A stretch of 64,000 bases of DNA from Rhynchopus sp. YZ270_cl-10 (taxonomy: Eukaryota): the NCBI GenBank assembly GCA_964035575.1, contig OZ037835.1:1550001-1614000 (forward strand), given 5' to 3'. Within the stretch, counting starts at the first letter, position 1. The number at the start of each line of letters is the position of its first letter. Under the pieces are notes generated by a model that worked only from the letters and a program-made list of their open reading frames with translations, ran no database searches and was not told the DNA's origin. Position numbers and translations under genes: made by a program. Of the stretch, positions 24,411 through 63,383 are shown piece by piece.

Positions 24411-24450
24411 TACCCCCCCCCCCCCCCCCCCTGATACCGTTTTTTTGCTA

Positions 24451-27400: not shown

Positions 27401-27552
27401 GACCAGGTACCTGGTCATCTGACCAGGTACACCTGGTCATGACCAGGTATACCTGGTCATGACCAGGTGTACCTGGTCAGATCTGACCAGGTGTACCTGG
27501 TCATAAATCTGACCAGGTATTACCTGGTCAGACCTCTGACCAGCGCACGGTG
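24451..27552. mobile_element. Non-autonomous CAC-ended element F (TIR CACCGTGCGCTGGTCAGAGG), subterminal TGACCAGG repeats
   Basis: 20-bp perfect inverted ends; TA at 24449-24450 and 27553-27554. Confidence 0.75.
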
Positions 27553-34648: not shown

Positions 34649-34810
34649 GACATGCTCACGTACCTCGTGACTTGGACTCTCAGATGCGTGTGTTAGCTGC
34701 ACTAGGTGGTGGTGTTTCAGTTGCATGGTAGTTTTATCAAAACAGATTTTATTCTCCACACCGTAGCACATTCAGGAAAAGTATCATTTCTCTATTTATT
34801 TTGTACGAGT

Positions 34811-35394: not shown

Positions 35395-35834
35395 TGCCAC
35401 GATCAAGAAGCGATCTTGGTCGAACCCCCACTGAGGTCTTGTTCGGTTTTGAAAGCCGTGTTCCGCAAAATAGATGTATTTTGAACAAGATAAAACAAAA
35501 GTCTTGCGTTTCTTTTATCGAACAGATTTTATTCTCACCCCATTCCCAAAACGTAAACACCACTTTCATTTTCATCACAAAAAAAAGATTTCTTTCTTCT
35601 TTCTTCTTCTACACACACTGGTTTTTGTGTTTCTCATTTTTATCAAAAAAGCTTTCAAGTTTCGAGTGCGAAACATTTCCCGATGTATTGCACGGGAAAC
35701 AATATTACAAACAGATGCAGGGTGGTTCCGTGCTTATCACAGAACCTGGCACGCGCTGCTCCGCTGTTGCATGTGTGTTCTTCGTCCTCTCTCGTTGCAA
35801 CCTCCTCACAGAAGCAGCAACACACAAACACACA

Positions 35835-38178: not shown

Positions 38179-38626
38179 TATTTCTATTGACACTCTATTG
38201 TCACTCGGGTTGGAGGGGAACAGTGATGGAACACAACGCATTTTTGACCCCAAAAAAACAGGGCACTTCACCTATTTTGAGCTTGGGTAATCAATTCCGG
38301 GGTGATTTTTGGACATTAGAGACGTTCTGGCGGTCTTATTGGGGGTGTTGATACTCATGACAAGGCAAAAAGAAAGCGTTTTTAAATAAACAATGGAGCG
38401 TTGGGTGTGTCAAATCTCTCTGAAACGCCTCTGGGGACTAGAAAAATCCCTCAAAAGCCACATATTTTTTGCCCCTCTTTTTCTTCCACTTCTTTTACAG
38501 CGAGCCAAATGCTTTTGCACGGCACGGGTCACACACAATGCCCACTCTCACCAGCAAGAATTTATCAAAAAGCAATTTCCCAAACACCACCAGACACACA
38601 CACACACACACACCCTTCCTCCCCTG

Positions 38627-39561
38627 ATGAAGCGCCTTCTCCTCTTTGCCACCTTGGCTTCAGTGTCCCATGCCTCCTCTGAACGTGTCCACCTCGCCTC
38701 CGACGTCAAGAACCTAATCCTCTACGCTGGGCGCTCCACCAACGCCCGCCGCGTCGGTGCCGTGCCCCAACTCTCCTGCAGCGGCCCAGACTGCAACGCC
38801 GTCGAGGTCGACTACATGCAATGCGAGAACATGGGCATGGGCTCCACCGGGGTACAGTGGAAGTGCACTGCATACCCTGAGATGGACAAACGGTATGCCC
38901 TGGGGTCTGTCAACGTCGGCTGCGAGGGATACAAAGACAAACAGGACCCATACGTTTTGCAGGGCTCCTGCGGGGTCGAGTACACAATCAAACGCACGAA
39001 GGCAGGACAACAACAGAACTCAAACAGGGACAGTAACTACGGTGGTGGTGGTGGTGGTGGTGGCTACTCCGCAGGGGGCCAGCGCTATCAAGGTGGAGGT
39101 GGTGGACACTCCTCCCACCACGCCTCGCACAACGACTACGCCAGCAGCTACTCGTACTCCTCGCCGACAGAGGGGAAGGGCACGCGATGGGTCATCTTCC
39201 TCATAGCTGCTGCCGCGCTTGCGTACTTCATGTTTTTCCGCACACCATCTGGACCAGGAGCACGCCCAGGGCCTCCCGGACGCAACGGAGGGGAGTACCG
39301 GGGGAGTGGTGGAGGTGGAGGAGGGGGCGGTGGTGGTGGTGGTGGTGGTGGTGGTGGGGGTGGAGGTGGCTACTTTGCGAACACAGGGTCGCGCTTCGGG
39401 AGCTACACGCAGACGCAGACGCAGCCGCAGGTTCCCCCCAACCCGCCTCAGCAGCAGCACGGCTTGTTTGGTGGTTGGGGTCAGTTCCTCGGGGGTGCCG
39501 CCCTGGGTTATATGTTCGGAGGAAACGGCTATGGCAACCAAGGCTACGGTGGAGGTTATGG
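38627..39561 (+). CDS. SARAF: SARAF/TMEM66-like protein, exon 1 (signal peptide, Cys-rich luminal domain, TM helix, Gly-rich tail)
   Basis: L.DV..L.L..GR.T.ARR..AVPQLSC.G..C....MQC.N.G...VQWKC...V.CEGY...DPYVL.GSCGVEY is the SARAF luminal signature; TM WVIFLIAAAALAYFMFF; GTATGT donor at 39562. Confidence 0.88.
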
Positions 39562-39873
39562 GTATGTAGGGGCTTTTGCCAAGAGGTTTCCTCTTCGGTG
39601 TGACTTCACCCCCTCTTCTGGTGGGCAATGTGTCGCTCCGAGAAAATGCTCTTCAACAATACAGCCCCATTTTGGGCCCTATTTCCAGCACTCAGAGAGT
39701 GCTCCAGAAAGGGGTTTTTAAACACACAACATTTTGGGCAATCTCCCGGGTTTGCGTGGGTTTGCGGGCATTATCCCTCAGGAATTGCCCATCTCCTATT
39801 TCAAACATACACCCTATGCGTAATGTGTCGCTCTTCTCACCCCCACATTGCCTTCATACCACCCCCCTCACAG

Positions 39874-41840: not shown

Positions 41841-42804
41841 CAGGCCTTTTGCTAACCATCATGCCATCATGCCACGTTTTTGGGCGTTTTTTATTTTTTT
41901 TTCCATCATGCCACCATCATGCCACGGGGGGTGGTGGGGCAAGGCTTTCGCTGTCCATCACCCCCAGATGGCATGATGGCATGATGGCATGATGGCATGA
42001 TGGCATGATGGCATGATGGCATGATGGCATGATGGCATGATGGCATGATGGCATGATGGCATGATGGCATGATGGCATGATGGCATGATGGCATGATGGC
42101 ATGATGGCATGATGGCATGATGGCATGATGGCATGATGGCATGATGGCATGATGGCATGATGGCATGATGGCATGATGGCATGATGGCATGATGGCATGA
42201 TGGCATGATGGCATGATGGCATGATGGCATGATGGCATGATGGCATGATGGCATGATGGCATGATGGCATGATGGCATGATGGCATGATGGCATGATGGC
42301 ATGATGGCACCTTAAAATTTTTCTGCTCGCTGCGCTCGCGGAGGTATACCTCAAAAAAATTTCCGCTCGCTTCGCTCGCGCTGTACGCCATTTTCTTCCT
42401 GCCTACGGTGTCATTTTACAATGTCTAGGGGGATTCCCTTGTATTTTACAGCCAAAAATGAAACTTGACCCAAGCTGCAAAAATTTGACCATTTTTAGTT
42501 CAAAGTGACCCAACCGTTGCAACAGCCCCTGCTTCTGGAAGACGTATTGATTTTGTACGGTTAGTGTACATAAGGCGCAAGACCAAGCGCCGTTAATAAA
42601 GGATTAGATTCCGTTTTTTTGTTATCTCGCAAAGCTGACCCTTCGCCTCTCCACCCTGTGGCTGGCAGGGAGGCGCGCGCGAAGCGCGCGACGACCACTT
42701 TCACCAGGTGGGAAAGCTCGGAATGTACTTTTTTTCCAGGAAATTATTTTTTTTTGACCATCATGCCATTCAGGGGGAAAATCCCAAAGTTAGCAAAAGG
42801 CCTG
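41841..42804. mobile_element. TIR element (CAGGCCTTTTGCTAAC) with direct repeat CGAAGCTCG on both flanks; internal (ATGATGGC)n at ~41968-42308
   Basis: 16-bp perfect TIR; 9-bp flanking duplication at 41832-41840 and 42805-42813. Confidence 0.8.
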
Positions 42805-44781: not shown

Positions 44782-46440
44782 ATGGAAGTAGTTATCAAGG
44801 ACTGTGCAGACAACTCGTACGTGATTGAGGTGGGTGTGGATGACACAACGGAGACGATGCGGCAGAAGGTGGCGTCTGCAGTGGGGTTGGCTGAGGACAG
44901 CTTCCTCATGGGCTTCGGAGGGAAGGAGGAAGGAGACGACATCACGCAGCTGAGTGCTGGAGACACAATCATCCTGACGAAAACTATGAAGTTCGTGGCT
45001 AGAGCAGCACTTCATGCGTTGGGTGAGGACATCACTGCAGAGAAGCTGAAGACGGTGAGGGATCCTGAGGTTGCGTGTTTGCTTCTGCAGGCGGAGGTTG
45101 CGACTGTCATTCCGAATCAGTTCTTGGCACGCACATCGTTAACAGCACTTGATCTGAGTGCTGTGTCCTGTGTGACGGAAATTGGTGATGAGTTTCTTCG
45201 CAACTGCACAACGTTGACAAGCGTCGACCTGTCTGGGTTGACACATCTCACGCGGATTGGTACCCACTTTCTTGCCGAATGCATCAGACTCACAACAGTA
45301 AACTTGCCTCCACTCAGCAATGTTACTCACATTGATAACTACTTTCTTTCCTACTGCAACAGCCTCAAAGTAGTGCATTTATCAGCTCTCAGCAATGTTA
45401 CTCACATTGGTGGAGACTTTCTCTACAACTGCATCAGCCTCACAGCAGTGGACTTATCCCCGCTCAGCAATGTTACACACATTAGTACAAGCTTTCTTCA
45501 CAACTGCAGCAGCCTCACCTCAGTAGACTTATCGCCACTCAGCAATGTTGCTCACATTAGCAGATGCTTTCTTTACAACTGCAACAGCCTCACAGCAGTA
45601 GACTTATCACCACTTCGCAATGTTGCACACATTAGTGAATACTTTCTAAACTGCAGGAGCCTCACCTCAGTAGACTTATCGCCACTTCGCAATGTTACTC
45701 ACATTAGTGAATACTTTCTTTTCAAGTGCACCAGCCTCACAGCAGTGCACTTATCGCTTCGCAATGTTACAGACATCGGTTTAGCCTTTATGGAGAACTG
45801 CAGAAGCCTCACCTCAGTAGATTTATCATCCCTTTGCAATGTTACTCACATTAGTGCATGCTTTCTTCAGAACTGCAGCAGCCTCACAGCAGTGGACTTA
45901 TCACCACTTCGCAATATTACTCACATTGATTCCTGGTTTCTTGCCGACTGCAGCAGCCTCACAGCAGTAGACTTGTCACCACTTGGCAATGTTACTGACA
46001 TTGGCAGAGGCTTTCTCCACAAGTGCAGCAGCCTCACAGAACTAGACCTGTCACCGCTCAGCAGAGTTACGGACTTTGGTCCGCCTACTTTTCACAGCTA
46101 CACTTCGTTGAGGAGCATCCACCTTGGCGGCTGCAGCAGTGCTGTGTCCAGTGTAATATGTCGATGTGGCGAGCTGAAGGAGTATGTGGTTGACGCACCT
46201 CCACCTCCGACACGCGGCGGAGACAAGACGAGAGTTCCACTTCTCAGCAATGTTACGCACATGGGTGAGCTTACGGGCATCCGCGACACTTCATTGAAGA
46301 GCATCCATCTTGGTGGCTGCAGCAGTGTTGTGTCCAGTCGAGTACGTGAAGGCGAGCTGAAGGAGTATGTGGTTGACGCACCTCCGACACGTGGCAGAGG
46401 CAAGACACAAGCAGCCTTGCCTTGCTGCAGTGTTTCGTAA
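44782..46440 (+). CDS. Ubiquitin-like domain + BspA/TpLRR-type leucine-rich repeat protein with C-terminal CaaX (intact copy 1, 552 aa)
   Basis: N-terminus MEVVIKD..YVIEV..DDTTETMRQKV...L.FGGK...LSAGDTIIL follows the ubiquitin pattern; ~25-aa repeats LTSVDLSPL.NVTHI...FL.NC.S; ends CCSVS*. Confidence 0.88.
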   Translation: MEVVIKDCADNSYVIEVGVDDTTETMRQKVASAVGLAEDSFLMGFGGKEEGDDITQLSAGDTIILTKTMKFVARAALHALGEDITAEKLKTVRDPEVACLLLQAEVATVIPNQFLARTSLTALDLSAVSCVTEIGDEFLRNCTTLTSVDLSGLTHLTRIGTHFLAECIRLTTVNLPPLSNVTHIDNYFLSYCNSLKVVHLSALSNVTHIGGDFLYNCISLTAVDLSPLSNVTHISTSFLHNCSSLTSVDLSPLSNVAHISRCFLYNCNSLTAVDLSPLRNVAHISEYFLNCRSLTSVDLSPLRNVTHISEYFLFKCTSLTAVHLSLRNVTDIGLAFMENCRSLTSVDLSSLCNVTHISACFLQNCSSLTAVDLSPLRNITHIDSWFLADCSSLTAVDLSPLGNVTDIGRGFLHKCSSLTELDLSPLSRVTDFGPPTFHSYTSLRSIHLGGCSSAVSSVICRCGELKEYVVDAPPPPTRGGDKTRVPLLSNVTHMGELTGIRDTSLKSIHLGGCSSVVSSRVREGELKEYVVDAPPTRGRGKTQAALPCCSVS

Positions 46441-47075
46441 AGAGCGACAGAAGAAGCTAGGCAAGGAACGTAGAGCAGCTCCGCTGTGACAGCTGCTTGT
46501 CCCATTCTGCGACGTCGGTGTGAGTCTTAGAAGACAGTGTCTGAATGAGAGTCAGTGAGGCACTCAGACAACACAGTTGCTTTCTCGTTGTGTAACTGTG
46601 CGATACCAGCGAAGCAAACACCGTGCAAAACGATCTCGGAGTGGACGTGCATTCGCTCAAGATACTGCGCAGGTCGTCATTCTCCAGTACCCGTGATCCA
46701 TTTCGAGTCACAAAGACATCCACACTTAGACAACGAGGCTTTCAAGTACCAAACAAATGATATCTACCGCCAGCTGTTTGTTGTCTCTTGCGGGATGGTG
46801 ACCCGCTTGTGACGCCGCCTGGGATACCCCTACACCTGCACGCATCAAACCTAAATGACAAGGCAGAGCAGTGGCGGGCTGCGTTTCTCTGTGCAGTCAC
46901 TCACTTGGGATATGTCGAATCTGGCTACGGGCATGAAGCCTCCGTTTTCCTGCAGGTCTTTACACAAAAGGACGTTACCATTAAGGACGCAGAGGTGTTC
47001 ATGTGGCGCAGACCTGTTCTGAGAGAAGACACTAACGAAACACTCAAAGAAGAAATGGAGTCGGGGAAGAAAAAA

Positions 47076-47538
47076 GCCGGACCCCGAGGTGAAGCTGGCT
47101 TTGCGTATGATGTAGTTCGGTTTGGCGCGTGCGTCCGACGTGGAGAAGCTGAAGGTGGAGGAGGTGAAGGTGACGGGGGACGACAACGTGGCGGTGACGT
47201 GGAGGCCGACCCGTTCAACCTTGGGCGAGCCACCGGCATGCACCTGCCGCAAACGCTGCGCGCACAGCTGGGGAAACAGCAGAAGAAGGAGAAAGGGAAG
47301 CCGCTGCCGGGGGCAACATACCCAAGGTTGGCCCGAGCCCTGAAGCGAGTGGACTCGACGCTGACGCCACACTCACTGCGCAGGGGGGGGCATCCACCAC
47401 CTGGTGCACGAGGGGGTAGATCTGGCGCAGATCCAGAAGGTGTCCCGCCACGAGACGCTGAAAGGGTTGTGCCACTACGCGCCTTTGGCGGAGTCTGCAG
47501 CGGTCGCGGAGACGGCAAGGGTGTCGATGCGGCTGTGA
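47076..47538 (+). pseudogene. Degenerate tyrosine recombinase fragment (DIRS/VIPER/TATE-type element relic)
   Basis: Across frames: LRMM*FGLARASDV..L, TPHSLRRGG and IQKVSRHETLKGLCHY give the R..HxxR..H..Y motif order; one stop and two frameshifts; absent from the paralogous flank at ~60270. Confidence 0.7.
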
Positions 47539-49127
47539 CGCTGCAGAAGTTGGTGGTACCGGGGTTGAGAATCCCTTCACGCTGGCTGCGATGCAGTGAG
47601 GTAGAACAGTGCTCTTGTGTTTCTTCTGTTATCGGGTGTTGGTCTACGTTGGGTCGCGAGCACCCAGTGTTTTGTCTGAGAGGCAGTGTGACAGAGCGTT
47701 TTTTCGTGCGTTGTTCTGGTATCGGGTTGATCTGCTTTAGGTCGAGCACCCAGTTCTCGTGTGTTTCTTCTGTTTTCGGGTTTGGTCTACCTTGGGTCGC
47801 GAGCACCCTGTACACTGTCTCAGAGGCAGTGAGGTAGAAAGATTTCTGTGTTTTTTTGTTTTTTTCAGTATTTCCTTTTTAGTTTGCTTTTTATTCTATT
47901 TTTCTTTCTGTGTTTGCTTGGGTTTTCTATATGATACACAAACAGGATGGTATTTGTTTGGATTGATAGCAATTATTGCACGGAATACTTTACGTATACA
48001 CGGCAGCCATCAAGACCAAGACTCTTTAGGTTACTCTTCCTCCTGGTGCACAGACAGGACATATCCTTACTACTGTATGATTCTTAGGACTGAAACAGGG
48101 TTAATGTTAGAAACCAATCTACTGAAGTTTCAATTTGTGCATGAAGCATTTATTTTTCTTTTTCTACGTTTTGCAAAACATTCCAAAAAAAAGCAAGGCT
48201 ACACTTTTCGTACCCTCTTTGCCTTCTTTTCGTTTCGTTAAGAAAAAAAAGTATATGAAATGATGTTTTTTGGTTTCTGGTCTACTTTGGGTCACGAGCA
48301 CCCTGTACACTGCCTCAGAGGCAGTGAGGTAGAAAGTTTTCTGGGTTTTAGCTCTCTGGCTATACGAACGCAGGCCGGGAGTGCCTGGGGTTTGAGAAAG
48401 TCGATCCGCGAGTGATTGAAACAGGGACAAGAACGGTGCATCGAAATATCGGTGGAGTCTGCTCGTGTGTGAGTGGTACTGACGATTGCCGAAACATCGG
48501 CGGACATGTACATTGGTGTGAGTCGCGTGTGTTTGTGTGTTATTGACAGAGTGTCACTGATAGTGCCGAAATGTCGGCAGGGACCGAACGCTCGGTCGTG
48601 CACGCCTAAGGGGAAAGGCCGCGCTGGTGGGTAGTCGACCGTAACGGCTGAAAGAAAGGGGGGGGAATGAAATCATCAGCAAAGCTGAGGTGGCCAAGAT
48701 AGCGATCTTGTTTTTGGGTGTGTGCGTTTCACCACAACCTCTCCCTTTTTGTCTTTACTGTTTTTATTGCTTTATTGTTTGTGGGGGTGGGGGAAAAACA
48801 TAAAAAGGAAAAGCAGGAGTGCGGTTTCAATTTTTCCATGTAATGATAAAAAGGAAATTGAACACCGTACCCTACTCCCTTCTGTTCCCCCTACTCTGGG
48901 GCGGGTTCGATCAGAGCCACATTTCACTGACAGGTCGAGGTGTGTGTTTTACCGCAACCTCTTTTAGTCGCAGTTGTTTTCATTGCTTTATTGTTTGCGG
49001 GGGTGACGGAAAAACATAAAAAGGAAAAGTAGGAAGAGTGCGGTTTCAATTTCTTCACCATGTTCACCCACTGCAGCCCCAACTCACAACCCCACCACAC
49101 AACAGAGCAACACAAAGGGAAGACAAA

Positions 49128-49337
49128 ATGGAAGTAGTTATCAAGGACTGTGCAGACAACTCGTACGTGATTGAGGTGGGTGTGGATGACACAACGGAGA
49201 CGATGCGGCAGAAGGTGGCGTCTGCAGTGGGGTTGGCTGAGGACAGCTTCCACATGGGCTTCGGAGGGAAGGAGGAAGGAGACGACATCACGCAGCTGAG
49301 TGCTGGAGACGCAATCATCCTGACGAAAACTAAGAAG
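49128..49337 (+). pseudogene. Ubl-LRR gene copy 2, 5' part (Ubl domain), interrupted by the retrotransposon and in frame with its ORF1
   Basis: Near-identical to 44782-44991. Confidence 0.88.
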
Positions 49338-49420
49338 AGGGTGAGAGACGACGCGCCTCCACGGGGTACCCTCGGGAGACGCCCCCCTCCTCTATGGGGG
49401 GAGGCGTCTGCTAAAGCGCG
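49337..49420 (+). ncRNA. HDV-like self-cleaving ribozyme (predicted) at the element 5' end
   Basis: P1 GAGGGU/ACCCUC, P2 CG(A)CGC/GCGCG, P3 GCC/GGU, L3 UCCACGG, P1.1 CC/GG, P4 AGACGCC/GGCGUCU, J4/2 GCUAAA with C at 49411. Confidence 0.7.
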
Positions 49421-49457
49421 GGGAAGAAGGACGGCGGCGGGGGGCAGCCTCGACGCG

Positions 49458-52400
49458 ATGTGCGGAGGGGCAGGTGGCCAAGGGGGGGAAAAGGGGGTGC
49501 TGCAGAAATACCTGAGGGGCTTCGACATGCGGGTAAAGGACGCAGGGGGGAACGGAGACTGCCAATTTAAGGCGGTCTCGATGGCTGTGCACGGAGACGC
49601 CACGGCGCACGGGGGGCTGAGGGAGATGGCGGTGGGGGTGTTGGAACGGGAAGCGGAGAATTGGGGTGAGCACGTTGACGGAGGACCGTCCGCCTACCGG
49701 AGGTACTGCTCGGCGATGGCGAAGCAGGGGTCCTGGGGGGACCACCTGACCCTGAAGGCGTTGGCGGAGGTGCTGATGCGGGAGGTGTATGCCTTCTCGG
49801 TGAAGGATGGGGAGGTGCGTGTGCTGAAGGTGCACCCGAAGGAGAAGGGCAGCGGTGCAGCGGTGACGGTGGCGTACGTGGACGCATGCCACTACCTGTG
49901 CGTCCTCCCCACGAGCACGGGGGAAGAAGCCGCCGAAGACCGGGCCCGCAAGGCGATGGTGGGGGGTGCGTTGGAGGTGACGGAGAAGCCGTACACCGTG
50001 CCGCAACCGCGAAACGATGCGAAGGCGGGGACGGAGGGGGGCTTCACCCAGGGGGGAGGGAAAAAGAAGACGACGGCAGCGCTGACATTGCTGCAATCGG
50101 AGTGGGTGGGATCGACGCTTGTGCCGTGGGGGGAGGTGGTGGATAAGTCGGAGGGGGTCTGTCTTGTGCCGCAGGGTAGAGAGGTAGAGGCAGAGGGGAA
50201 GATCGCGCGCACGCCGGGCGTGACGTGGGTGGGTTTCGGGTCCTTCCCGAAGTCTGGTGGGGAGAAGATGCAGTGCCCCATGGGTAAGCAGGGGAATGGG
50301 GGGAAGGTGAACGGGGCGGCGAGCACGGCCGTGTACGTGGTGGGGAGGCTGAGGCCGGGGAGAGGAAACGGGGGGAAGAAGGCGTCGGCGGCCGTCCAAC
50401 TGGTGACGGTGTTTGTGACGATGAGGCCGACAGCAGGACAAGCGCAGGACCTGGTGTCAGCGGGGAAGAAGATGCGTGCGGAGGTGGGGTGCAACCTCAA
50501 CCGCCCACCATTGTGGCAGGAGGGTAAGCTGATCTCCTCGGTGGCCGACGTAAGGGAGGACGTAGCAGAGCGCTGCCTGAAGCAGAGTGGGAAGGGGGGT
50601 GTCTTCTTCCGGATGAGACGCGAGCAGTCGGAGCATCTGCCTGTCGTGTGGTTGGTGGACGGGGTGGGGCTAGAAGAGGCCCAGGGGCTGGCGACCCGGA
50701 TGGGGGGATGGGGAGTGGCGGCGAGGTACGAGTCCCTGGGGATACGGGTGAAGAAGGAGGATCAGGAGCGTGCAAATGCGGCACTCATGCAGGAGGGAAA
50801 GGCGCCCGAAGGTCGATACGTGGTGTCCGGTTTCCCGTCGGGTACGTCCGGTGAAGCGGTGATGGAGTCGCTGGCAGGCGCAGGGTGGACGGTGACGCCG
50901 CTGCGGAGGCTGGAGGGATGGCGTTGGGTGGTGGGAGCGAAGCTGGATCCGCCGACGTGGGCCATGGACATGGAGGGGAACGGGAAGGGGCTGCTGATCC
51001 GCAAGGATGGGCATAAGGAGGGCGGGGGTAGGGCAACGGCTCCGGGTCCGGGGGCGAAACAGAAGGCCAAGGTACATACCGCACATGCGTCTGGTCCGAC
51101 ATTTGGTGCCCGGACGGCGCCGGCGGCGACAGCGCAGCACAACCGTGGCACTGGGCCCGACTACGGTTGGGTGTCCTGGGCTGCGCACGCACGCCAAGCA
51201 GCAACAGCGCCAGCTGCAGCGAAGCCACCCACTACCACATCAAGGACACCTCCACCAACAACAACAACAACAACGAAGCAACGGACGCCGAAGGGTCAAC
51301 CCCCAATGACGTCGCCCGCCCCATCACCTGAGGACGCAGGCGAGAAGTGGGCGGAGTTGGAGCGCCGGATGGAGGAGAGGTTGGACCGCCTGGTGGGCGA
51401 GCGCCTCCAGACCCTGCTGCAGGAGACGGTGGCGTCGCTGACGGCCCAGTTGCGGGAAGAACGGGTGGAGCAACGGAAGAGCAGCAGGTGTGGATGGCGG
51501 CCATGCTGGAGCAAGTGGGCAAGCTCTGTTCCATGCCGAAGGAGGCCACGGCTGCTGCGAGAGAGGACGCCGCTGCTGCTGCTGCAGCCCTGAGGCAGGA
51601 GGAGGAGGAGGCGAAGGCCGCCGCCGCTGCAGCCCTGAGGCAGCGTGAGGAGGAGGCGAAGGCCGCTGCTGCTGCAGTCCTCAAGCAGCGTGAGGAAGAG
51701 GTGAAGGCCGCCGCTGCTGCAGCCCTGAGGCAGCGTGAGGAGGAGGCGAAGGCCGCCGCTGCTGCAGTCCTCAAGCAGCGTGAGGAGGAGGTGAAGGCCG
51801 CTGCTGCTGCAGCCCTGAGGCAGGAGGAGGAGGTCGCCGCTGCTGCAGCCCTCAAGCAGCGCGAGGAGGAGGTGAAGGCCGCTGCTGCTGCAGCCCTGAG
51901 GCAGCGTGAGGAGGAGGTGAAGGCCGCCGCTGCTGCAGTCCTCAAGCAGCGTGAGGAGGAGGTGAAGGCCGCTGCTGCTGCAGCCCTGAGGCAGGAGGAG
52001 GAGGTCGCCGCTGCTGCAGCCCTCAAGCAGCGCGAGGAGGAGGTGAAGGCCGCTGCTGCTGCAGCCCTCAAGCAGCGCGAGGAGGAGGAGAAGGCCGCCG
52101 CTGCTGCAGTCCTCAAGCAGCGTGAGGAAGCCGACGCTGCTGCTGCAATCCTCTGGCAGCAGGAGGAGGAAGCCGCCGCCGCCGCTGCTGCAGTTGCTGC
52201 TGAGAACGCCAGGCAGCGCGAGGGGGAGGCTGCTGCTACTACGGCCCCGACTGTCGCAGTGCCCACTGCAGCGCCCACAACACCCGAGATGCAGATGGCG
52301 GATGAATTGTTGGACACACTCCCAGACGGGATTGCCGAGGACGTGATGTCACCGGAGCCCGCAACGATGGCAGGTAAGCGGATACGTGCGGGAAATGGGT

Positions 52401-53212
52401 CCAGTGAGGTTGAGGAGCTGAGCCCGCGCCGCAGGAGGAGGAGGGCTGACACCATCCGTGGAAAGCCGGGGGTAGTCGTAGAAGTCGCCGAAGCACGGAA
52501 CCGGTCGCGGTCAGCACCACCCAGGGACACATCGCCGACTGCGGACGTTGCTGGCGCCGGTGATGTGGAGGTAGTGGTGGCGTCCCCGAAGAAGAAGAAG
52601 AAACGCAGGAACATTGTGGCCGCTGAGAAACGACGGGAGGCACTACGGGCAGCACAGGAAGAAGCGGCGGCAAAGAAGGAGAGACGTGCTGCAGCAGTGC
52701 AGGCACAACGTGAGCAGGAGCAAGGGGAGAACGCCGGCGCAGGGACCCCCGCACCCACGACACCAGACGCCGAGGCACGGATGGACGACGCCGACATGGC
52801 ACTGCCGGTGCAGACATCGCCAGACTGTGCGGCTGTCGAGGAGGACGCGGAGACCTCGCCAGCTCCCAGAGTGCCGGTGGCGCCACCTGCCGTGACCCTG
52901 GCGGGCAAGCGGGAAGACCGCAGTGAGTCCGGTGAGACGGTGGCGCTGCTGAGTCCGCCGCGCAGGATGCGGACGGAAGTCCCCGCAAAAGAGCAGGCGG
53001 AGGGGAACGAGAAGAACGAGGAGTCGTACGGGAACGCAGTGCTGGAGGCTGGCGACTCCATGGAGTACTGCGAGGAGGGAGGCAACGGCGCAGCCATCCC
53101 GGTGACTGTCGTGAAGGTAGCGGGGGACGTCATCGAGATCGCGTTTCGTCCCGTCCAGGGACTAGACAACAGGTTGGTAGGCCGCAACACCCTGCGCGAT
53201 GTGGGGCGGTGA
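49458..53212 (+). CDS. Retrotransposon ORF1: OTU-like cysteine protease, central domain, Ala/Glu-rich coiled-coil repeats (one frameshift at ~51478)
   Basis: GNGDCQFKAVS (Cys codon 49560), WGDHLTLKALA and CHY (His codon 49890); ORFs 49038-51593 and 51347-53212 join by a 1-nt shift; repeats AAAAALRQREEEVK. Confidence 0.75.
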
Positions 53213-53224
53213 CGGTGTGGTGCG

Positions 53225-56200
53225 GTGGAAGGGTACGGCACAGGATTGGCTTCTTCGTGCGTAGTTGGAGAACGAGACGTTTTTGTGAAAACTGTCTCCC
53301 CAACAAGGGGTCAGCATCGTTTGCGCTCTGCGGGCTGTATGCTGTCGGGGACAAGGGGTAAGGGTAGAACGCGAAGGGGGGTGGGGCGAGGGGTCGGACA
53401 CAGGGTGCGTCGAGGGAGGCGACGAGGGGCGTTTTTGGGCAGGGGGTCACTGCTGACATGTGGAGACGTGGAGGAGCATCCGGGTCCGTCGACCATGTCG
53501 CTTGGCACGGCAAACGTGACGTCTCTGAGGGCACACCCTGCGGTGGGGGAGTGGGATGTGGACGTTTGTGCTCTGCAGGAGGTGCGCCTCACAGAAGAAG
53601 AGATGAAGGGGGCAGCAAACGACGTGAAGGGGTATGGTGCCAAGCAGCTTCTCTTTGGTGCCCCTTGCAGACGAAGCCAGGGATCAGACCCTCTGCGCAC
53701 GCGCACGCAGAATGGTGGAGTTGCGATCATGACGTGCGCTGACATACCGACCAGAGCAGTACCGCCACAATGTGCCCAACAAGCGTGGAACGAATGCCGC
53801 TTTACGCATGCGCAGGTGGCATATGGGAGCGGGGGACGTAACATCTCTGTGTTCTCGTTTTATGGTGTGTGTGCCGACAGCGACCGCACGGAGCAACTCC
53901 TGACAGGCATCTTTGAAGAAGCAGCCAGCCTTGGGGACATACCGGTGTTCATTGCCGGAGACTTCAACGTAGAGGCTAACGAAAGTCTAGCCATTCGAGC
54001 GGCCATCTCCTCCGGCAAATGGGTTGATGCGGCAGATACCTACGCACAGCAGTTGGGTAAGGCAGCAGAGAACACATGCTATACCTCCACATCGTCTGGC
54101 AGACGTATCGACTTGGTGCTGGCGAACCACGTGGCTGCCCCTGCGATCTCCAAAGTGGTGGTCTGGAAAGAGAGCTGCCTCCCGGTACACAGACCGGTGG
54201 TGTTGACGTTAGACCTGACGCGATACGAGCAGAAGGCACCGCAGGCACGCCCTCCCCTTTCTTTGATCGGCGACGACTGGACGAAATGGCCGGCGAAGAA
54301 GGAGAAGGAGCTTGCAGCGAAGGTGATGCAGGAGAACGCTGCCCCTGAAGCCGACCTGACGAAGATGTCGGTTGAAGATCGCTGGGCACGCTTCTGCAAG
54401 ATTGCGGAGGACTACCTGCTGAAGAGAGGTGCTGCAGACTCAGACCCGAAGCAACAACGCCACAGGGGGAGAGGGGAGGTGCAACCCGACGTTCTCCGAC
54501 ATCGGACGGCCCGCATGGACTGCGACACGCCGGATGCTGTGAACCTGGAGACGGCTCAACTGCAGAAGACATGTCGTCAGATGGAGCAGCTCATTGGTGA
54601 TCGGAGGAAGCGCTTCGGTCAGCCATCTGCAGAATCGTTGAACGAACGGCAGCTGTGGGCGAAAATCCGCAAGAAGAAGCATCTACTGAAGAGTGACACC
54701 TGGGACCTCGACCTTCCTGGGATAGAGGCGTTGTGTGGGCTCCTTGGCTGCTTGAAGAAGAGGGGTTTTGTCCTGCTGGAGCAACGGCGTCGGGCCCGCA
54801 TCAAGGAATGGCGCCGCACAATGAAAGAACACATGAAGGAGAACCCAGCGAAGGTGTTCTCGTTCCTGCGGAAGGCTACGTCGTCACACACCACGTTCCT
54901 GAAACGGGAGGACGGCACGGTTACAGCTAACCTCCAGGAGATGGATGAACTGCTCATGGATGACCGTGCTTGGGGTGGGGTGTTCCGGATGTACGACGAT
55001 TCCGAAGAACCTGCGTGGACGACGTTCTTTGATAGGTTCAAGGAACACATTCCTGAAGGGACCCCTTGTGTATGCGAACCCCTGACCGCCGACGACCTCC
55101 GTACGACCATCGGCAAGATGAAGCGGAAAAAGGCGGCAGGCCTCGATGGGTGGAGGGTGGAGGAGCTGAAGGAACTGCCTTTGACACTGCTGGAGGAACT
55201 CGCGCGCTGCCTGAACCTGATCGAGGATACTGGGAACTGGCCCAGGGTGATTGCGAGGGCGTTGGTGGTGCTCATCCCCAAAGGAGAAGGCGAGGAGCCC
55301 CTGAAGCAGCGACCCATTACCATCACCAGTGTGATGTACAGGTTATGGGCGGCGACTCGACTCCGCAAAGTGGCGACGTGGCAGGAATCCTGGATTCACG
55401 AGCGGCAACACGGCTTCCGGAACAAACACGGAACCGAAGACCTGCTGTGGTTTCTCTGTGCGAAGATGGAGGAGGCTCTGACACACCTATCTATCTAGCC
55501 TCCTTCGACTATCAGAAGTGCTTTGACCGTGTTCCCCAAGAGATCATGTTCCAGCTCGTCGAACGGTTGGGTCTTCCCGACAACATGATGCGCCCCATCC
55601 GGGGTATATACAAGAAGCTGGGGAGGCGTTTCAAACTTCCGGCAGGTCTTGGCAAAGAATGGTTTGCGACGAATGGTATCCTCCAAGGATGCCCACTGAG
55701 CGTAATCTTCCTGAATGCGCTGGTGGCGGTGTGGATGAACGGGGTGGAGAAGGAAACGGGCACGCAGGGGCTGGCGTATGCTGACGACACCAACCTCCTG
55801 ACGAAGACCCTCGACCAGCTGCGAGCGGGTGTCGCCTTCACCGGACACTTTGCAGACTTGACGGGACAACGCGTCCACGCGGGGAAGAGCACGTGGCAGA
55901 GCAACCGTCCTGATGAAGAGGAAACTGTGCAGATGAACGGCGCGGATCTTACTCGCGTCGAGAAGTCGGAGTGCCTGGGGGCGACGGTGCAGGCCCGACA
56001 GGCTGGGACGCCCACGCTCCCGACGAAGCTGGAAGACACCATCGACGCATGCGGACCGCTAGCAGGTAAGGTGGGATGCCTCCCGCTGACTCAAGGTGAG
56101 AAAGCAGGCATCATGCAGGCTGCAGTGATGTCGAAATCTGTGTACGGTATCACGGTGCAGGACCCACCTGGGAAATACGTGAACAGTCTTGCAACTGCAG

Positions 56201-58212
56201 TGGAGAAAGGGGTCCACGGCGTGAACAAGATGAACCGAAGAAGCGTACCGGTCATGCTGAATGTCTTCGAGAAAGGCCATCTGCTCGACCCCTCGGTGGC
56301 ATTCGACTACAGAAGGATCATGACGTGGGCGGCGATGATACGCAAATCGGATGAGATCTGTTTGCTGGTCGAAAAGTGCAGGTCACGTGCGAAAGCGAAG
56401 CAGGCGAAGACTGGAGGACCCATCGGGTTGATTGCGCGAGCCCTCAGCCGCCTTGCGTGGTCATGGATAGACACGACAAAAGTGAAAACGCACGATGGGA
56501 GCATCGTTGATGTGAAGACAGTAAGCTTGGGTAGACTGGGCCACGTTGTGCGAGAACGGATGTTCTTCATTCGACTCTCCCGTACGAAGACGACTGCGAA
56601 GGCCAATGGCAAAGGCAGAGCTAACCTGAAGGGTATTGAAGCGGGGGTGGATAAGGAGAAAACCCTTGCTCTCACCCGAAGCAAAACTTTGACGGATTAC
56701 GAGGCGGGGACGCTACGACACATTGTAGCTGACGGTGCGATAACGGGGGTGCGACTTGCGAGAGCGCGCATACGGGACTCGGCCATCTGCGTGCACTGCG
56801 AAGCGGGGGTGGACGAAAATCACAAACACTTGTGGTGGGAATGTGAAGCATGGAGTAGCATTCGTGCGGAGTACCCCTTGCTGTTGGACATTGACAGATC
56901 GACCTGGCCAAACTGTCTCGCTATCTGCGGCATGTGCACACCGGACACACCTTTGGAATGCGCCCGTGTTGCAGACCTGCAGAAGATGATGGTGCGCATC
57001 CTCATCGCACGCTCCAAGTGGAGCAGACCGGAAGCGACGAACCCGCGACTGCAAGAAGACCGATACCCGTGGACGTGGGCGCCGGAGTTGGACACGACGA
57101 CGCAACACGCGAACAGTTTGGTGGACTACACCCCCCTGAAAAGGAGGTGGCCGTATGGACGTGCGCTGCTGCTGGCGTTTGCCTCCTGGCTGGGTGGTTT
57201 ACAATGGAGCGACGAAGCTGGACGTGAAGTCTCCCACATGGAGCTGCTCATCGACTTCGAGGTTGCCACAGGGATGGACATCCGACCTGGGGACAAGACC
57301 GGCAGAATAGCGCCGAAGCTGAAGCAGCCGAGGGATGGGACTGGGGAAGAAGTCAACAATGGGGGGGAAGACGACGGGAGTGAGGAAGACGACGATGATG
57401 ACGACGTGGTGCCAGTAGCGCTGGCCCACAGAGAAATGGCGAAGACGACCACCTTTGGGCATATGTTGGCTTCACTCAGAACCTTTTCGGAGAGCTCTCT
57501 CCATCCGGGGAAGGTGAAGGTAACGCATGTTCTCGCTTCGTTTGGGGCGAACGCCATCACAGGCATCGACCGCCGTCCTATCTTTGCCGGCGGAGAAGAA
57601 ACGTTGAAGGCATTGCGTGCGCTATACGATGCTGGTGTGGCGTACCGTCTGCAACGCAGCTCCGAAGGCATGTCTGAGGCGGAGCTCCGTGGTGGCGATA
57701 GAGCGAGAGGTACATGGATGGGGGAGTATTCTGCTGAGACGGCGTACCCCTCCACAGAAGTTAGGGGCAGGAGGGCACTACCATTCATCCAGCGGGCTGA
57801 ACAGGAGACATCTGCGCATGCTCGCTACCGGCACCATGAGCACGTGCGTCCAGGGGACGCACCCGTGAAGGCACCTGAAGGAGCGGTTCCGATCTTCCAG
57901 TTTGCGATATGTGTGCTGCACCGGAAGACGAAGTGTGATGCCTGCTCGAAGAACGCCCAGGCAGACCTGATGCATTGCTGCTTTGCGCACCACTCCAACG
58001 ACGACGGGTTACCGATCCGACACGAAGCATGCACTAAGCATAGACTCTCGAGGTGCGGGAACTGTGTGCAAGAGAAGAGTACGCTGGATCACTGCTGCCG
58101 CCGCCACCACGACACCTCGAAGGGGCGACAGACGACGCTGGGAGGCTTCTTCAAGAAGAAGCAGACGAAGCAGAAGGATGGGCACAGCAGGGGCGGTGAT
58201 GGACTTATGTAA
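53225..58212 (+). CDS. Retrotransposon pol: 2A peptide, AP endonuclease, reverse transcriptase, CCHC knuckle, C-terminal Cys/His repeats (frameshift at ~55485)
   Basis: APE: TANVTSL, ALQEVR, AGDFN, RIDLVL, HRPV. RT: QHGFR, FDYQKCFDRV, GILQGCPLS, YADD (55777-55788). C-x2-C-x9-H-x4-C at 56788-56844. Confidence 0.9.
53438..53488 (+). other. 2A/StopGo-like peptide GRGSLLTCGDVEEHPGP
   Basis: 16 of 17 residues match T2A (EGRGSLLTCGDVEENPGP); lies directly before the APE domain. Confidence 0.8.
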
Positions 58213-58258
58213 CATCACCCCCACGATGTATTGTATCACCTATCTCGGATAGGGGTGC

Positions 58259-59641
58259 ATGCATCGAAAACGGGCCCCCACCCTGACGAAAACTAAGAAG
58301 TTCGAGGCCAGAGCAGCACTTCATGCGTTGGGTGAGGACATAACTGCAGAGAGGCTGGTGACTGTGGAGGATCCTGAGGTTGCGTGTTTGCTTCTGCAGG
58401 CGGAGGTTGCGACTGTCATTCCGAATCAGTTCTTGGCACGCACATCGTTAACAGCACTTGATCTGAGTGCTGTGTCCTGTGTGACGGAAATTGGTGATGA
58501 GTTTCTTCAGCGCTGCACATCGTTGACAAGCCTCGACCTGTCTGGGTTGACACGTCTCACGCGGATTGGTACCAACTTTCTTGCCAACTGCACCAGCCTC
58601 ACAACAGTGGACTTACCACCACTCAGCAATGTTACACACATTAGTACAGGCTTTCTTCACAACTGCAGCAGCCTCACCTCCGTAGACTTATCACCACTTC
58701 GCAATGTTACTCACATTAGTGAATACTTTCTAAACTGCAGCAGCCTCACCTCAGTAGATTTATCACCACTTCGCAATGTTACTCACATTAGTGAATACTT
58801 TCTTTACAACTGCAGCAGCCTCACAGAAGTGGACTTATCGCCACTTCGCAATGTTACAGACATTGGCGCAGCCTTTATGGAGAACTGCAGAAGCCTCACC
58901 CTAGTAGATTTATCATCCCTTTGCAATGTTACTCACATTAGTACATGCTTTCTTCACAAGTGCACCAGCCTCACAGAAGTGGATTTATCACCACTTCGCA
59001 ATGTTACTCACATTGATCCCTGGTTTCTTAGCTACTGTAGCAGCCTCACAGCAGTGCACTTGTCACCACTTGGCAATGTTACTCACATTGGCAGGGGCAT
59101 TCTTTACAACTGCAGCAGCCTCACCTCCGTAGACTTATCACCACTTCGCAATGTTACAGACATTGGTGCAGCCTTTATGGAGAACTGCAGCAGCCTCACC
59201 TCAGTAGATTTATCCCTTTGCAATGTTACTCACATTAGTACAAGCTTTCTTCACAAGTGCACCAGCCTCACAGAAGTGGACTTATCACCACTTTGCAATG
59301 TTACTCACATTGATCCCTGGTTTCTTAGCTACTGTAGCAGCCTCACAGCAGTAGACTTGTCACCACTTGGCAATGTTACACACATTGGCAGGGGCTTTTT
59401 TCACAAGTGCAGCAGCCTCACAGAACTAGACCTGTCACCGCTCAGCAGAGTTACGCACTTTGGTAAGCTTCCTGCTGACAGCTACACTTCGTTGAGGAGC
59501 ATCCACCTTGGCGGCTGCAGCAGTGCTGTGTCCAGCGTAATATGTCGATGTGGCGAGCTGAAGGAGTATGTGGTTGACGCACCTCCGACACGTGGCAGAG
59601 GCAAGACGAAAGCAGCCTTGACTCGCTGCAGTGTTTCGTAA
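58259..59641 (+). CDS. Ubl-LRR gene copy 2, 3' part (LRR + CaaX), open from an element-derived ATG
   Basis: Open 460-aa frame, LRR repeats, ends RCSVS*. Confidence 0.75.
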   Translation: MHRKRAPTLTKTKKFEARAALHALGEDITAERLVTVEDPEVACLLLQAEVATVIPNQFLARTSLTALDLSAVSCVTEIGDEFLQRCTSLTSLDLSGLTRLTRIGTNFLANCTSLTTVDLPPLSNVTHISTGFLHNCSSLTSVDLSPLRNVTHISEYFLNCSSLTSVDLSPLRNVTHISEYFLYNCSSLTEVDLSPLRNVTDIGAAFMENCRSLTLVDLSSLCNVTHISTCFLHKCTSLTEVDLSPLRNVTHIDPWFLSYCSSLTAVHLSPLGNVTHIGRGILYNCSSLTSVDLSPLRNVTDIGAAFMENCSSLTSVDLSLCNVTHISTSFLHKCTSLTEVDLSPLCNVTHIDPWFLSYCSSLTAVDLSPLGNVTHIGRGFFHKCSSLTELDLSPLSRVTHFGKLPADSYTSLRSIHLGGCSSAVSSVICRCGELKEYVVDAPPTRGRGKTKAALTRCSVS

Positions 59642-61092
59642 AGAGCGACAGGAGAAGCTAGGCAAGGAACGTAGAGCAGCTCCGCTGTGACAGCTGCTTG
59701 TCCCATTCTGCGACGTCGGTGTGAGTCTTAGAAGACAGTGTCTGAATGAGAGTCAGTGAGGCACTCAGAAAACACAGTTGCTTTCTCGTTGTGTATCTGT
59801 GCCATGCCAGCGAAGCAAACACCGTGCAAAACGATCTCGGAGTGGACGTGCATTCGCTCAAGATACTGCGCAGGTCGTCATTCTCCAGTACCCGTGATCC
59901 ATTTCGAGTCACAAAGACATCCACACTTAGACAACGAGGCTTTCAAGTACCAAACAAATGATATCTACCGCCAGCTGTTTGTTGTCTCTTGCGGGATGGT
60001 GACCCGCTTGTGACGCCGCCTGGGATACCCCTACACCTGCACGCATCAAACCTAAATGACAAGGCAGAGCAGTGGCGGGGTGCGTTTCTCTGTGCAGTCA
60101 CTCACTTGGGATATGTCGAATCTGGCTACGGGCATGAAGCCTCCGTTTTCCTGCAGGTCTTTACACAAAAGGACGTTACCATTAAGGACGCAAAGGTGTT
60201 CATGTGGCGCGGACGTGTTCTGAGAGAAGACACTAACGAAACACTCAAAGAAGAAATGGAGGGGAAGAAAAAATCACAGTTATTTATTTTATTTGACCGT
60301 TGTGAGAGTGGTAGAGAGGGGTGCGGTGGGTGGGGTGGGGGCAAAAGGCGGGTTTTTGTTTCATAAAAAGCGCAAGATTACTGGGACGTGTCCAGAACCA
60401 CCCCCAAAAACGGTTTTCTGGGGTTTTTGCGGGTGAAAAGGGTCAGCGCACAGGTGGTTTTGTGCTAGTTTTTTCCACAGCACCGACATGTGTGGCGTGT
60501 CTCCCAAATAACAAAAAAGCAAATGAATAAAAAGTATTGGAAGCAAAAAAGAAGAACAAAACAATGTGGTTTCCACCAGGGATAGGCTCTGAGTGACTAT
60601 ACAATGGCATTGACCCACTTCTAAAATGTGGTGCATGGGAGACAAATGTGCAGAGCTTTGTGTGCGAATGCAAAGGAAAACATGGTGCTTTGTGAACAGC
60701 TCTCAGCGGCCCTGTTCCAACAATGTAGCAAAAAGACTAAAAATAGAAAATACAAAACAAAATGTGAGGAGGGTGGAGGGGACTGATATTGTGTGCTCTT
60801 TCTTCCTGGTGTGGTTCAGTGGCCAGGTGGTGTCGTGTGTTGAGGAAACCCGAGTGGTTCGCAAAGAAGACCCTCGATCACCCCACACCCTTCTGCACAT
60901 TTCCAACAAAAGCGATGAGTCCTTAGGAGCGTACCTCTTCTCGAAGTACGCAACGACATGTTTTCCATCAAAAGGCCCCCCTACCTCCACCTGTTTTCAC
61001 ACCCCTATCACCCTTCTCCTCGTTGTTCACCCACCACAGCCCCAACTCCCACAACCCCACCACACAACAGAGCAACACAAAAGGAAGACAAA

Positions 61093-61302
61093 ATGGAAGT
61101 AGTTATCAAGGACTGTGCAGACAACTCGTACGTGATTGAGGTGGGTGTGGATGACACAACGGAGACGATGCGGCAGAAGGTGGCGTCTGCAGTGGGGTTG
61201 GCTGAGGACAGCTTCCACATGGGCTTCGGAGGGAAGGAGGAAGGAGACGACATTACGCAGCTAAGTGCTGGAGACACAATCATCCTGACGAAAAGTAAGA
61301 AG
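61093..61302 (+). pseudogene. Ubl-LRR gene copy 3, 5' part (Ubl domain), interrupted
   Basis: Near-identical to 44782-44991. Confidence 0.85.
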
Positions 61303-62239
61303 GAAGAAGACAACAATGGGGGGAAGACGACGGGAGTGGGGAAGACGACGATGATGACGACGTGGTGCCAGTAGCGCTGGCCCACAGAGAAATGGCGAAG
61401 ACGACCACCTTTGGGCATATGTTGGCTTCACTCAGAACCTTTTCGGAGAGCTCTCTCCATCCGGGGAAGGTGAAGGTAACGCATGTTCTCGCTTCGTTTG
61501 GGGCGAACGCCATCACAGGCATCGACCGCCGTCCTATCTTTGCCGGCGGAGAAGAAACGTTGAAGGCATTGCGTGCGCTATACGATGCTGGTGTGGCGTA
61601 CCGTCTGCAACGCAGCTCCGAAGGCATGTCTGAGGTGGAGCTCCGTGGTGGCGATAGAGCGAGAGGTACATGGATGGGGGAGTATTCTGCTGAGACGGCG
61701 TACCCCTCCACAGAAGTTAGGGGCAGGAGGGCACTACCATTCATCCAACGGGCTGAACAGGAGACATCTGCGCATGCTCGCTACCGGCACCATGAGCACG
61801 TGCATCCAGGGACGCACCCGTGAAGGCACCTGAAGGAGCGGTTCCGATCTTCCAGTTTGCGATATGTGTGCTGCACCGGAAGACGAAGTGTGATGCCTGC
61901 TCGAAGAACGCCCAGGCAGACCTGATGCATTGCTGCTTTGCGCACCACTCCAACGACGACGGGTTACCGATCCGACACGAAGCATGCACTAAGCATAGAC
62001 TCTCGAGGTGCGGGAACTGTGTACAAGAGAAGAGTACGCTGGAGCACTGCTGCCGCCGCCACCACGACACCTCGAAGGGGCGACAGACGACGCTGGGAGG
62101 CTTCTTCAAGAAGACGAAGCAGACGAAGCAGAAGGATGGGCACAGCAGGGGCGGTGATGGACTTATGTAACATCACCCCCACGATGTATTGTATCACCTA
62201 TCTCGGATAGGGGTGCATGCATCGAAAACGGGCCCCCAC
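61303..62239 (+). mobile_element. 5'-truncated copy (937 bp) of the same retrotransposon at the same target site
   Basis: Matches 57346-58281; TSD at 61284-61302 (one mismatch) and 62240-62258. Confidence 0.92.
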
Positions 62240-63323
62240 CCTGACGAAAACTAAGAAGTTCGAGGCCAGAGCAGCACTTCATGCGTTGGGTGAGCGGAAC
62301 ATCACTGCAGAGAGGCTGGTGACTGTGGAGGATCCTGAGGTTGCGTGTTTGCTTCTGCAGGCGGAGGTTGCGACTGTCATTCCGAATCAGTTCTTCGCGC
62401 GCACATCCTTCACAGCACTTGATCTGAGTGCTGTGTCCTGTGTGACGGAAATTGGTGATGAGTTTCTTAGGCGCTGCACAAGGTTGACAAGCCTCGACCT
62501 GTCTGGGTTGACACGTCTCACGCGGATTGGTACCAACTTTCTTGCCAACTGCACCAGCCTCACAACAGTGGACTTACCACCACTCAGCAATGTTACACAC
62601 ATTAGTACAGGCTTTCTTCACAACTGCAGCAGCCTCACCTCCGTAGACTTATCACCACTTCGCAATGTTGCACACATTAGGGAATACTTTCTAAACTGCA
62701 GCAGCCTCACCTCAGTAGACTTATCGCCACTTCGCAATGTTACTCACATTAGTGAATACTTTCTTTACAACTGCAGCAGCCTCACCTCAGTAGACTTATC
62801 ACCACTTCGCAATGTTACAGACATTGGTGCAGCCTTTATGGAGAACTGCAGAAGCCTCACCTCAGTAGATTTATCACCACTCAGCAATGTTACTCACATT
62901 AGTACATGCTTTCTTCACAAGTGCACCAGCCTCACAGAAGTGGATTTATCACCACTTTGCAATGTTACTCACATTGATCCCTGGTTTCTTAGCTACTGTA
63001 GCAGCCTCACAGCAGTAGACTTGTCACCACTTGGCAATGTTACTCACATTGGCAGGGGCTTTCTTCACAAGTGCAGCAGCCTCACAGAACTAGAACTGTC
63101 ACCGCTCAGCAGAGTTACGCACTTTGGTAAGCTTCCTGCTGACAGCTACACTTCGTTGAGGAGAATCCACCTTGGCGGCTGCAGCAGTGCTGTGTCCACT
63201 CGAATATGTCGATGTGGCGAGCTGAAGGAGTCTGTGGTTGATGCACCTCCACCTCCACCTCCACCTCCACCTCCACCTCCACCTCCACCTCCACCTCCAC
63301 CTCCACCTCCACCTCCACCTCCA

Positions 63324-63362
<39 letters not shown>

Positions 63363-63383
63363 GGCTTAGAGTTTTTGTTGTGA
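62217..63383 (+). CDS. Ubl-LRR gene copy 3, 3' part (LRR); C-terminus replaced by (CCACCT)n and poly-T
   Basis: Open frame with LRR repeats; CaaX end lost at the 63245-63358 repeat. Confidence 0.65.

Follow-up and report, generated by a model that had tools for sequence, protein, structure and literature searches.

Can a retrotransposon find the same codon of a protein-coding gene family more than once? Most of the known target-specific elements without long terminal repeats (non-LTR elements) come from arrays of RNA genes and from repeats; in the R1 and Tx1 clades the targets are ribosomal DNA (rDNA), small-RNA genes, simple repeats and other transposons. We examine here a stretch of 64,000 nucleotides from Rhynchopus sp. 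YZ270_cl-10 (GenBank assembly GCA_964035575.1, contig OZ037835.1, positions 1,550,001 to 1,614,000 of the forward strand), called the window below and numbered from its first letter. In this 64-kb window, three tandem paralogs (ATGs at 44782, 49128 and 61093) encode BspA-type leucine-rich repeats (LRRs) behind a ubiquitin-like (Ubl) domain. As an earlier reading of the letters alone had claimed (the original prediction), two of the three are interrupted at the same site, by copies of a non-LTR retrotransposon with an apurinic/apyrimidinic endonuclease (APE). Comparison with contigs and proteins from elsewhere lends good support to recurrent insertion at one codon of this coding multigene family. 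We think it probable that the APE-type element, in two subfamilies, has inserted near one Ubl-LRR site in separate events of target-primed reverse transcription, that recognition operates on sequence but is leaky, and that some copies apparently lie elsewhere.

The insertion site in the Ubl-LRR genes

The three genes and the two inserts are arranged as follows.

44782..46440, + strand: copy 1, intact Ubl-LRR gene with an empty target (LRR_5, E 6e-40)
49128..49337, + strand: copy 2, 5' half, the Ubl domain up to the left target-site duplication (TSD), in frame with the first open reading frame (ORF1) of the element
49319..49337, + strand: copy 2, left TSD (19-mer search)
49338..58281, + strand: full-length non-LTR retrotransposon, subfamily A (8,944 bp; the 3' end may be 58282)
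58282..58300, + strand: copy 2, right TSD (19-mer search)
58301..59641, + strand: copy 2, 3' half (LRR region)
61093..61302, + strand: copy 3, 5' half, containing the left TSD at 61284-61302 (one mismatch)
61303..62239, + strand: 5'-truncated element copy in copy 3 (937 bp)
62240..62258, + strand: copy 3, right TSD (19-mer search)
62259..63383, + strand: copy 3, 3' half (LRR region, entering low-complexity sequence)

Copies 2 and 3 are broken after the same codon. The duplication around the inserts, predicted as the same 19 bp throughout, is exact on both sides of copy 2 (49319 and 58282) and to the right of copy 3 (62240); to the left of copy 3 (61284) it carries one substitution, with a second substitution 8 nt inside the insert, and the empty copy 1 has the 19-mer with one mismatch (44973-44991). 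With up to three mismatches allowed, five matches are found in 64 kb, where 0.03 would be expected by chance. We put the TSD at 18-19 bp, since the 19-mer's initial C may be element sequence: loose ends in short-read contigs of runs X1 and X3 begin behind 58282. The inserts have the sizes foreseen (8.9 kb and 937 bp), and the short one aligns to the 3' end of the long one from 57346. Its 5' break does fall at the TSD edge, as had been proposed, although one base there is compatible with either side.

Are the inserts as old as the genes that they interrupt? An alignment of copies 2 and 3 has 7 differences in 934 bases of insert and 25 in 809 bases of the host halves (Fisher p=2.7e-4); when only non-repeat host sequence is counted, 14 differences in 549 bases are left (Fisher p=0.006 against 7/934). 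The smaller number of differences in the inserts indicates that they are younger than the host duplication.

The target family is large, with at least 191 protein clusters (191 of 264 candidates scored). The 120 listed family proteins lie on 23 contigs, and the ubiquitin domain PF00240 is recorded for 12 of these 120 matches. In the 119 intact listed members the codons at the site read L (118), T (102), K (92), a variable position, K (62) and K (109). An atlas search with the Ubl part returned only matches of 0.80 or less.

Outside the window we examined the short-read contigs of five runs (X1, X3, X4, X5 and X7). X5 and X7 are of low depth, and their loose ends are mostly low-complexity matches; loose-end counts refer to the 24 listed for each set, so that totals are lower bounds. 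Together with a protein search, which could show only this one position in Ubl-LRR genes, these contigs yield four further junctions in other paralogs, all within approximately 5 nt of the window site and one of them from a sister subfamily (B). Subfamily B has an intact second open reading frame (ORF2; P0276/P0277, 1,666 amino acids), recorded from ENA contigs on which target-family genes lie as well, and is 78% identical to subfamily A at the amino acid level (1290/1655). In the protein P0122, the Ubl of another paralog is fused at LTKTK to a subfamily-B ORF2 that starts at residue ~610 of 1,666, just before the reverse transcriptase (RT). This Ubl matches the window copies at 60 of 69 residues and P0006, on P0122's own contig, at 65 of 69. 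With the subfamilies only 78% identical, P0122 cannot be a copy of the window insertion. P0025 starts with the element 3' end, one base off the frame seen in the window, and continues as a TKTQKYEAI paralog on another contig; its junction matches a junction in X1 that is shorter by 1 base. One could suppose that the element 3' end restores the LRR half in frame (MHRKRAPT...) as a rule, and we rejected this idea because P0025 has another frame. An X3 contig reaching 58290 runs on as a TKVKKFEAR-type paralog. Finally, one contig each in X1 and X3 links the target flank (49310) to element position 53998 via 22 bases, which we read by eye as the target frame TVVLAPT; the sides of this joint are 28 and 20 bases long.

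In three paralog types (the window, P0025 and the X3 contig) the positions of the 3' junctions differ by no more than 1 nt, while the 5' junctions spread over approximately 5 nt. The differing subfamilies, paralogs and truncation points and the small offsets mean that these are not copies of one insertion, and separate insertions at one site are well supported by these comparisons.

Anatomy and relatives of the element

The long insert is an APE-type non-LTR retrotransposon, as predicted. An APE domain (PF03372) lies upstream of a non-LTR RT (PF00078), both with their motifs; there is a TSD, and the repeat comparison of the window found no terminal repeats of the insert; and 5'-truncated copies share its 3' end. 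The best PDB sequence matches of ORF2 are the L1 ORF2p and R2 RTs. Its parts are given below.

49338..53212, + strand: ORF1, ~1,290 codons, with an OTU domain, a middle part and Ala/Glu-rich repeats (stop at 53210-53212)
49548..49892, + strand: OTU-like cysteine protease domain, Cys and His motifs present (Pfam PF02338, E 9e-10)
53213..58212, + strand: ORF2, ~1,660 codons
53462..53488, + strand: 2A-like motif GDVEEHPGP, directly before the APE
53510..54200, + strand: APE endonuclease domain (PF03372, E 2e-10, and motifs)
55270..55920, + strand: RT domain (YADD), approximate bounds (PF00078)
56788..56844, + strand: C-x2-C..H..C zinc knuckle, nearly invariant in two alignments
57115..57579, + strand: conserved domain split by an acidic loop, with a weakly predicted winged-helix-like arrangement
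57910..58110, + strand: duplicated Cys/His-rich C-terminal module (19 proteins matched, 8 of them subfamily B)
58224..58266, + strand: predicted 3'-terminal RNA hairpin (z -3.1)

ORF1 has a frameshift near 51478 that is closed in contigs of X1, X3, X4 and X7, and ORF2 has one near 55479 that is closed in contigs of X1, X3, X4 and X5. With each closed in four runs, the consensus of the element family is likely intact, and the open frames together with near-identical copies suggest recent activity. The 2A-like motif, compared with the consensus in the accessible text of PMC3708506, is an N-to-H variant in the window element and reads as the canonical GDVEENPGP in the subfamily-B sequence. The predicted hairpin occupies the last 60 bases of the element, with no poly(A) tail after it; the 5' end folds no better than shuffles (z -0.2), and an Rfam scan of the element gave one chance match and none of relevance. 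No RNase H match was found in the window ORF2 or in P0277, in a scan in which relatives score RNase_H or RVT_3, and structure searches with models of the C-terminal region gave no match at Z >=5 or E <=0.001 and no restriction-like endonuclease, the domain that accompanies the APE at the C-terminus of Dualen/RandI elements. The core of the domain behind the knuckle folds confidently in its model (mean predicted local distance difference test score 75). Its best structural match has Z 4.4, with a root-mean-square deviation of 3.8 over 80 aligned residues, which is below the trust range of the method; the top matches (RFX5, Fur, ORC) are what we take to be winged-helix proteins, and the modeled likeness is a lead only.

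Over 49128-51593, one reading frame runs from the host Ubl into the OTU-bearing ORF1 and predicts a Ubl-OTU fusion whose junction lacks a di-glycine. Expression borrowed from the host ATG is speculative, because chance alone would produce an in-frame fit in one case out of three and the element brings an ATG of its own at 49458. Cleavage of the host Ubl by the OTU is unsupported, given the junction without di-glycine and the element's own ATG at 49458, which precedes the OTU cysteine.

The two subfamilies are 95% identical over the first 100 aligned residues and end in an identical C-terminal peptide; these stretches hint at recombination between them. In X1 and X3 there are contigs with a different sequence before 53237, and X3 has a divergent RT stretch (55512-55608); the contigs suggest subfamilies with a common ORF2 start and different ORF1s. 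The nearest named relatives come from Diplonema papillatum, Flectonema neradi and Polarella glacialis. In an RT tree made by a quick method from 84 rows, which held no named-clade references and from which four redundant or partial rows had been left out, the element groups loosely with two diplonemid rows (Shimodaira-Hasegawa-like approximate likelihood ratio test 91, unstarred). From this placement alone, the host would likely be a diplonemid or another euglenozoan. Unnamed OTU-APE-RT(-RNase H) elements from these three species and from metagenomes share its RT neighbourhood at 33-42% identity and have the same post-knuckle and Cys/His modules. An N-terminal OTU is found in the relatives P0133, P0139, P0145 and P0149. 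The relatives carry OTU and APE in one ORF, whereas the window element splits them over ORF1 and ORF2, and some keep an RNase H-like domain where it has the split conserved domain. One D. papillatum protein (P0281, KAJ9450510.1) begins as an adenylate/guanylate cyclase, continues as a related APE-RT-RNase H-like element and ends in non-element sequence; judging from this order, a relative may lie inside another coding gene. The element 3'-end pattern had no match in metagenome and viral contig collections, and a scan of metagenome and prokaryote contig collections for relatives likewise found none.

Strictness of the preference and competing explanations

How strictly does the element keep to its site? 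An X1 contig (49308-50029) runs from 30 bases of target flank into the element 5' end at a depth of 547, against 596 in the next element contig, which suggests that the target flank precedes the majority of full-length 5' ends. Of the seven subfamily-B cluster members, six share a contig with listed family proteins (120 proteins on 23 contigs); among all element proteins with a contig, 6/9 are on family-bearing contigs and 3/9 on contigs without a listed family member. Short-read depth climbs toward the element 3' end, as for 5'-truncated copies. In all, we count six on-target junction sets, one off-target protein fusion and several loose ends. A pair of short loose ends in X3, in front of 56777 and 57890, lacks the TSD at its end.

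The off-target cases are the first of several points that weigh against repeated insertion at a preferred site. P0125 is fused to an unrelated ORF with a long N-terminus, on a contig without a listed family member; its junction peptide is weakly target-like, in the top 0.6-1.5% of the null with a negative score. Loose ends behind 58282 (at least three contigs in X1 and at least three in X3) score below zero on the family profile, though in a frame chosen by eye they fall in the top 0.3% of the null. Summed contig depth, which is not a copy number, is 536 at 58283 against 2,931 at 57680 in X1, and 2,598 against 3,395 at the same positions in X3. Some junctions have weaknesses of their own. P0122 and P0025 are gene-caller proteins known as protein sequence only. 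The 53998 joint, with its sides of 20-28 bases, did not reappear in a second joint listing, and none of the seven joints listed there links the 41-bp target flank to an internal element position; nor does any short-read contig among these seven join the left flank to 57346, the 5' junction of copy 3. A 93-amino-acid protein that spans the copy 3 junction is on record (P0287; 1 of 19 exact look-ups of window-derived proteins), and is not independent evidence, as it may come from the window's own locus. A search for proteins of 165-525 amino acids with the C-terminal module produced no short fusion among 30 candidates, a result that is uninformative because short copies are clustered under longer representatives. 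Gene conversion could have inflated the host divergence. Finally, both window copies have C at 58220, where all aligned short-read contigs have T.

At least five X1 contigs join long, mutually unlike DNA at 58223, the start of the 3' hairpin. The stretch 58223-58282 may belong to short non-autonomous elements, or to other families sharing a 60-base 3' signature, and such pieces may account for some of the foreign 3' flanks.

Could the inserts descend from one ancestral insertion, spread by tandem duplication, unequal crossing-over and gene conversion, with a later deletion taking away the 5' part of copy 3? Copies 2 and 3 are adjacent and share the base at 58220, copy 2 looks mosaic (its upstream part resembles copy 1 and its downstream part copy 3), and such a history may hold for some full-length copies. 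It cannot account for a sister subfamily of 78% identity at this codon in another paralog, for junction offsets of 1-5 nt, for different truncation points or for inserts that resemble each other four times more closely than their hosts do. As an account of the whole family this explanation is largely refuted, and we give it very little weight. For copies 2 and 3 alone, a shared origin is rather unlikely; with this reservation the predicted independence of the insertions is upheld by the divergence contrast and the four further junctions. It is also very unlikely that no sequence is recognized and that a preference for the array region (through chromatin or low selection) combines with a purine-rich fragile spot or with microhomology to the element's GAAGAAG-like tracts. 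GAAG-rich sequence does flank the copy 3 junction on both sides, and the co-location of elements and family on contigs fits a regional bias. However, the first nick sets the 3' junctions, and these fall within 1 nt of each other in three paralog types, and no junction was seen at other gene positions, though the protein search was confined to this one.

Strict specificity of the R1/R2 kind would make the off-target junctions divergent paralogs, later rearrangements or other elements sharing the last 60 bases. The target flank apparently common to full-length 5' ends is in its favor, as are the weakly target-like off-target peptides, the presence of LKKTK in paralog P0007 and the joins at 58223. 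Against it stand the long unrelated N-terminus of P0125, the three of nine element proteins away from listed family members and junction positions that differ by up to approximately 5 nt, and we find it quite improbable. The original prediction had called the element apparently sequence-specific and had suggested the gene family as its safe harbour; given P0125 and the non-family loose ends, neither strict specificity nor the safe-harbour reading is established. A more elaborate version strikes us as unlikely: an undescribed lineage that uses a coding multigene family as R2 uses rDNA, with most autonomous copies at one Ubl-LRR codon chosen by the C-terminal winged-helix-like domain and the APE, and with the in-frame full-length copy borrowing host processing signals and start codon to be expressed as a Ubl-OTU-ORF1 fusion.

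We return, then, to separate insertions guided by leaky sequence recognition, for which the anatomy, the junction positions and the divergence contrast are direct observations. The insertions lie at nearly one site, the L-T-K-T-K-K codons with which the Ubl domain closes in a number of Ubl-LRR genes. Binding of the element RNA, at its 3' hairpin, would fall to the ORF2 protein. The APE, possibly aided by domains at the C-terminus, would introduce a bottom-strand nick where a CTGACG motif begins; by analogy with L1Tc (accessible text of PMC5814959), the APE is the default candidate for the determinant of specificity. The nick would prime reverse transcription, a top-strand cut 15-19 nt downstream would create the duplication, and early termination would leave 5'-truncated copies. 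The 3' junctions within 1 nt fit a defined first nick, and the 5' spread of ~5 nt fits a looser second cut. In a family of at least 191 protein clusters, the loss of single members is likely cheap.

The rest of the window holds several other features. Downstream of copy 1, a degenerate ORF (46761-47540) with a TPHSLRRGG motif is partly repeated near 59962-60273, after copy 2; it is presumably tyrosine-recombinase-like (TATE/DIRS type), and Pfam gave no such match. Four ankyrin-repeat-like genes, ~90% alike and assigned to their family by eye, form a tandem array at 28242-37499, and a SARAF-family gene (Pfam E 2e-52) lies at 38390-39721. An inverted repeat of ~2.4 kb and 98.7% identity at 20419-27414 (20419-22794 against 25045-27414), with nested inverted repeats, is possibly a DNA transposon or a palindrome. 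Two long ORFs at 4387-7612, the first ending in C2H2-like zinc fingers and with inverted similarity between 4158-4484 and 7400-7744, are possibly an unclassified transposon. A tandem repeat at 41958-42311 reads CHHAIMPS in more than one frame.

Comparison with known systems

The literature search returned nothing that describes this element, an APE non-LTR element with an OTU, or the targeting of Ubl-LRR genes; Repbase and most subscription papers were outside its reach. The idea that a Tx1 family targets ubiquitin genes was not confirmed by it. The lineage, with its relative site preference, is apparently undescribed. The targeting of coding multigene families, on the other hand, has precedent, so the novelty implied by the original prediction was overstated: in trypanosomes, Ingi/RIME elements have an insertion hot spot within the coding region of RHS genes (PMC7563717), and in Tetrahymena 76% of the REP copies are located together with repeat units of LRR genes (PMC6564038), both according to the accessible parts of these papers.

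The likeness to Ingi/RIME and L1Tc/NARTc in the RHS genes of Trypanosoma is considerable. In the accessible parts of four papers (PMC7563717, PMC5814959, PMC3820030, PMC3708506), these are APE-RT non-LTR elements with a 2A-like peptide before the APE, as here, and with relative site specificity for a fixed site in the 5' coding region of a large multigene family, which leaves split pseudogenes. Elements of the Ingi clade, as far as these texts describe them, have a single ORF that includes RNase H downstream of the RT, a TSD of 12 bp, a poly(A) tail and, at the 5' end, a signature of 76-79 bp with an HDV-like ribozyme. The window element shares the 2A-like peptide and differs in its long OTU-bearing ORF1 beside ORF2, the lack of an RNase H match, the 18-19-bp TSD, the hairpin without poly(A) and the unrelated target family. 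As several Ingi-clade features fail, we do not file it in that clade. Tetrahymena REP, also a non-LTR element of a protist, is linked with an LRR family that has expanded, and many of its copies retain a conserved short 3' tail of 54 bp (accessible text of PMC6564038). REP is associated with group III LRR genes, whereas the window element interrupts a coding exon, at one codon that precedes the LRRs. R1- and Tx1-clade elements, too, encode an APE and are target-specific for multicopy sequences (accessible text of PMC4640811).

What does the Rhynchopus element add? The ~190 natural target variants, with and without inserts, could reveal the recognition sequence of an APE element from one genome. 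As an intact element whose DNA site is defined and whose 3' RNA hairpin is short, it is also a candidate system for work on RNA-templated gene insertion. After the trypanosome RHS and the Tetrahymena LRR genes, it would be a further, apparently independent case of a targeted coding family, in an OTU-bearing lineage of which two sister subfamilies have kept the same target.

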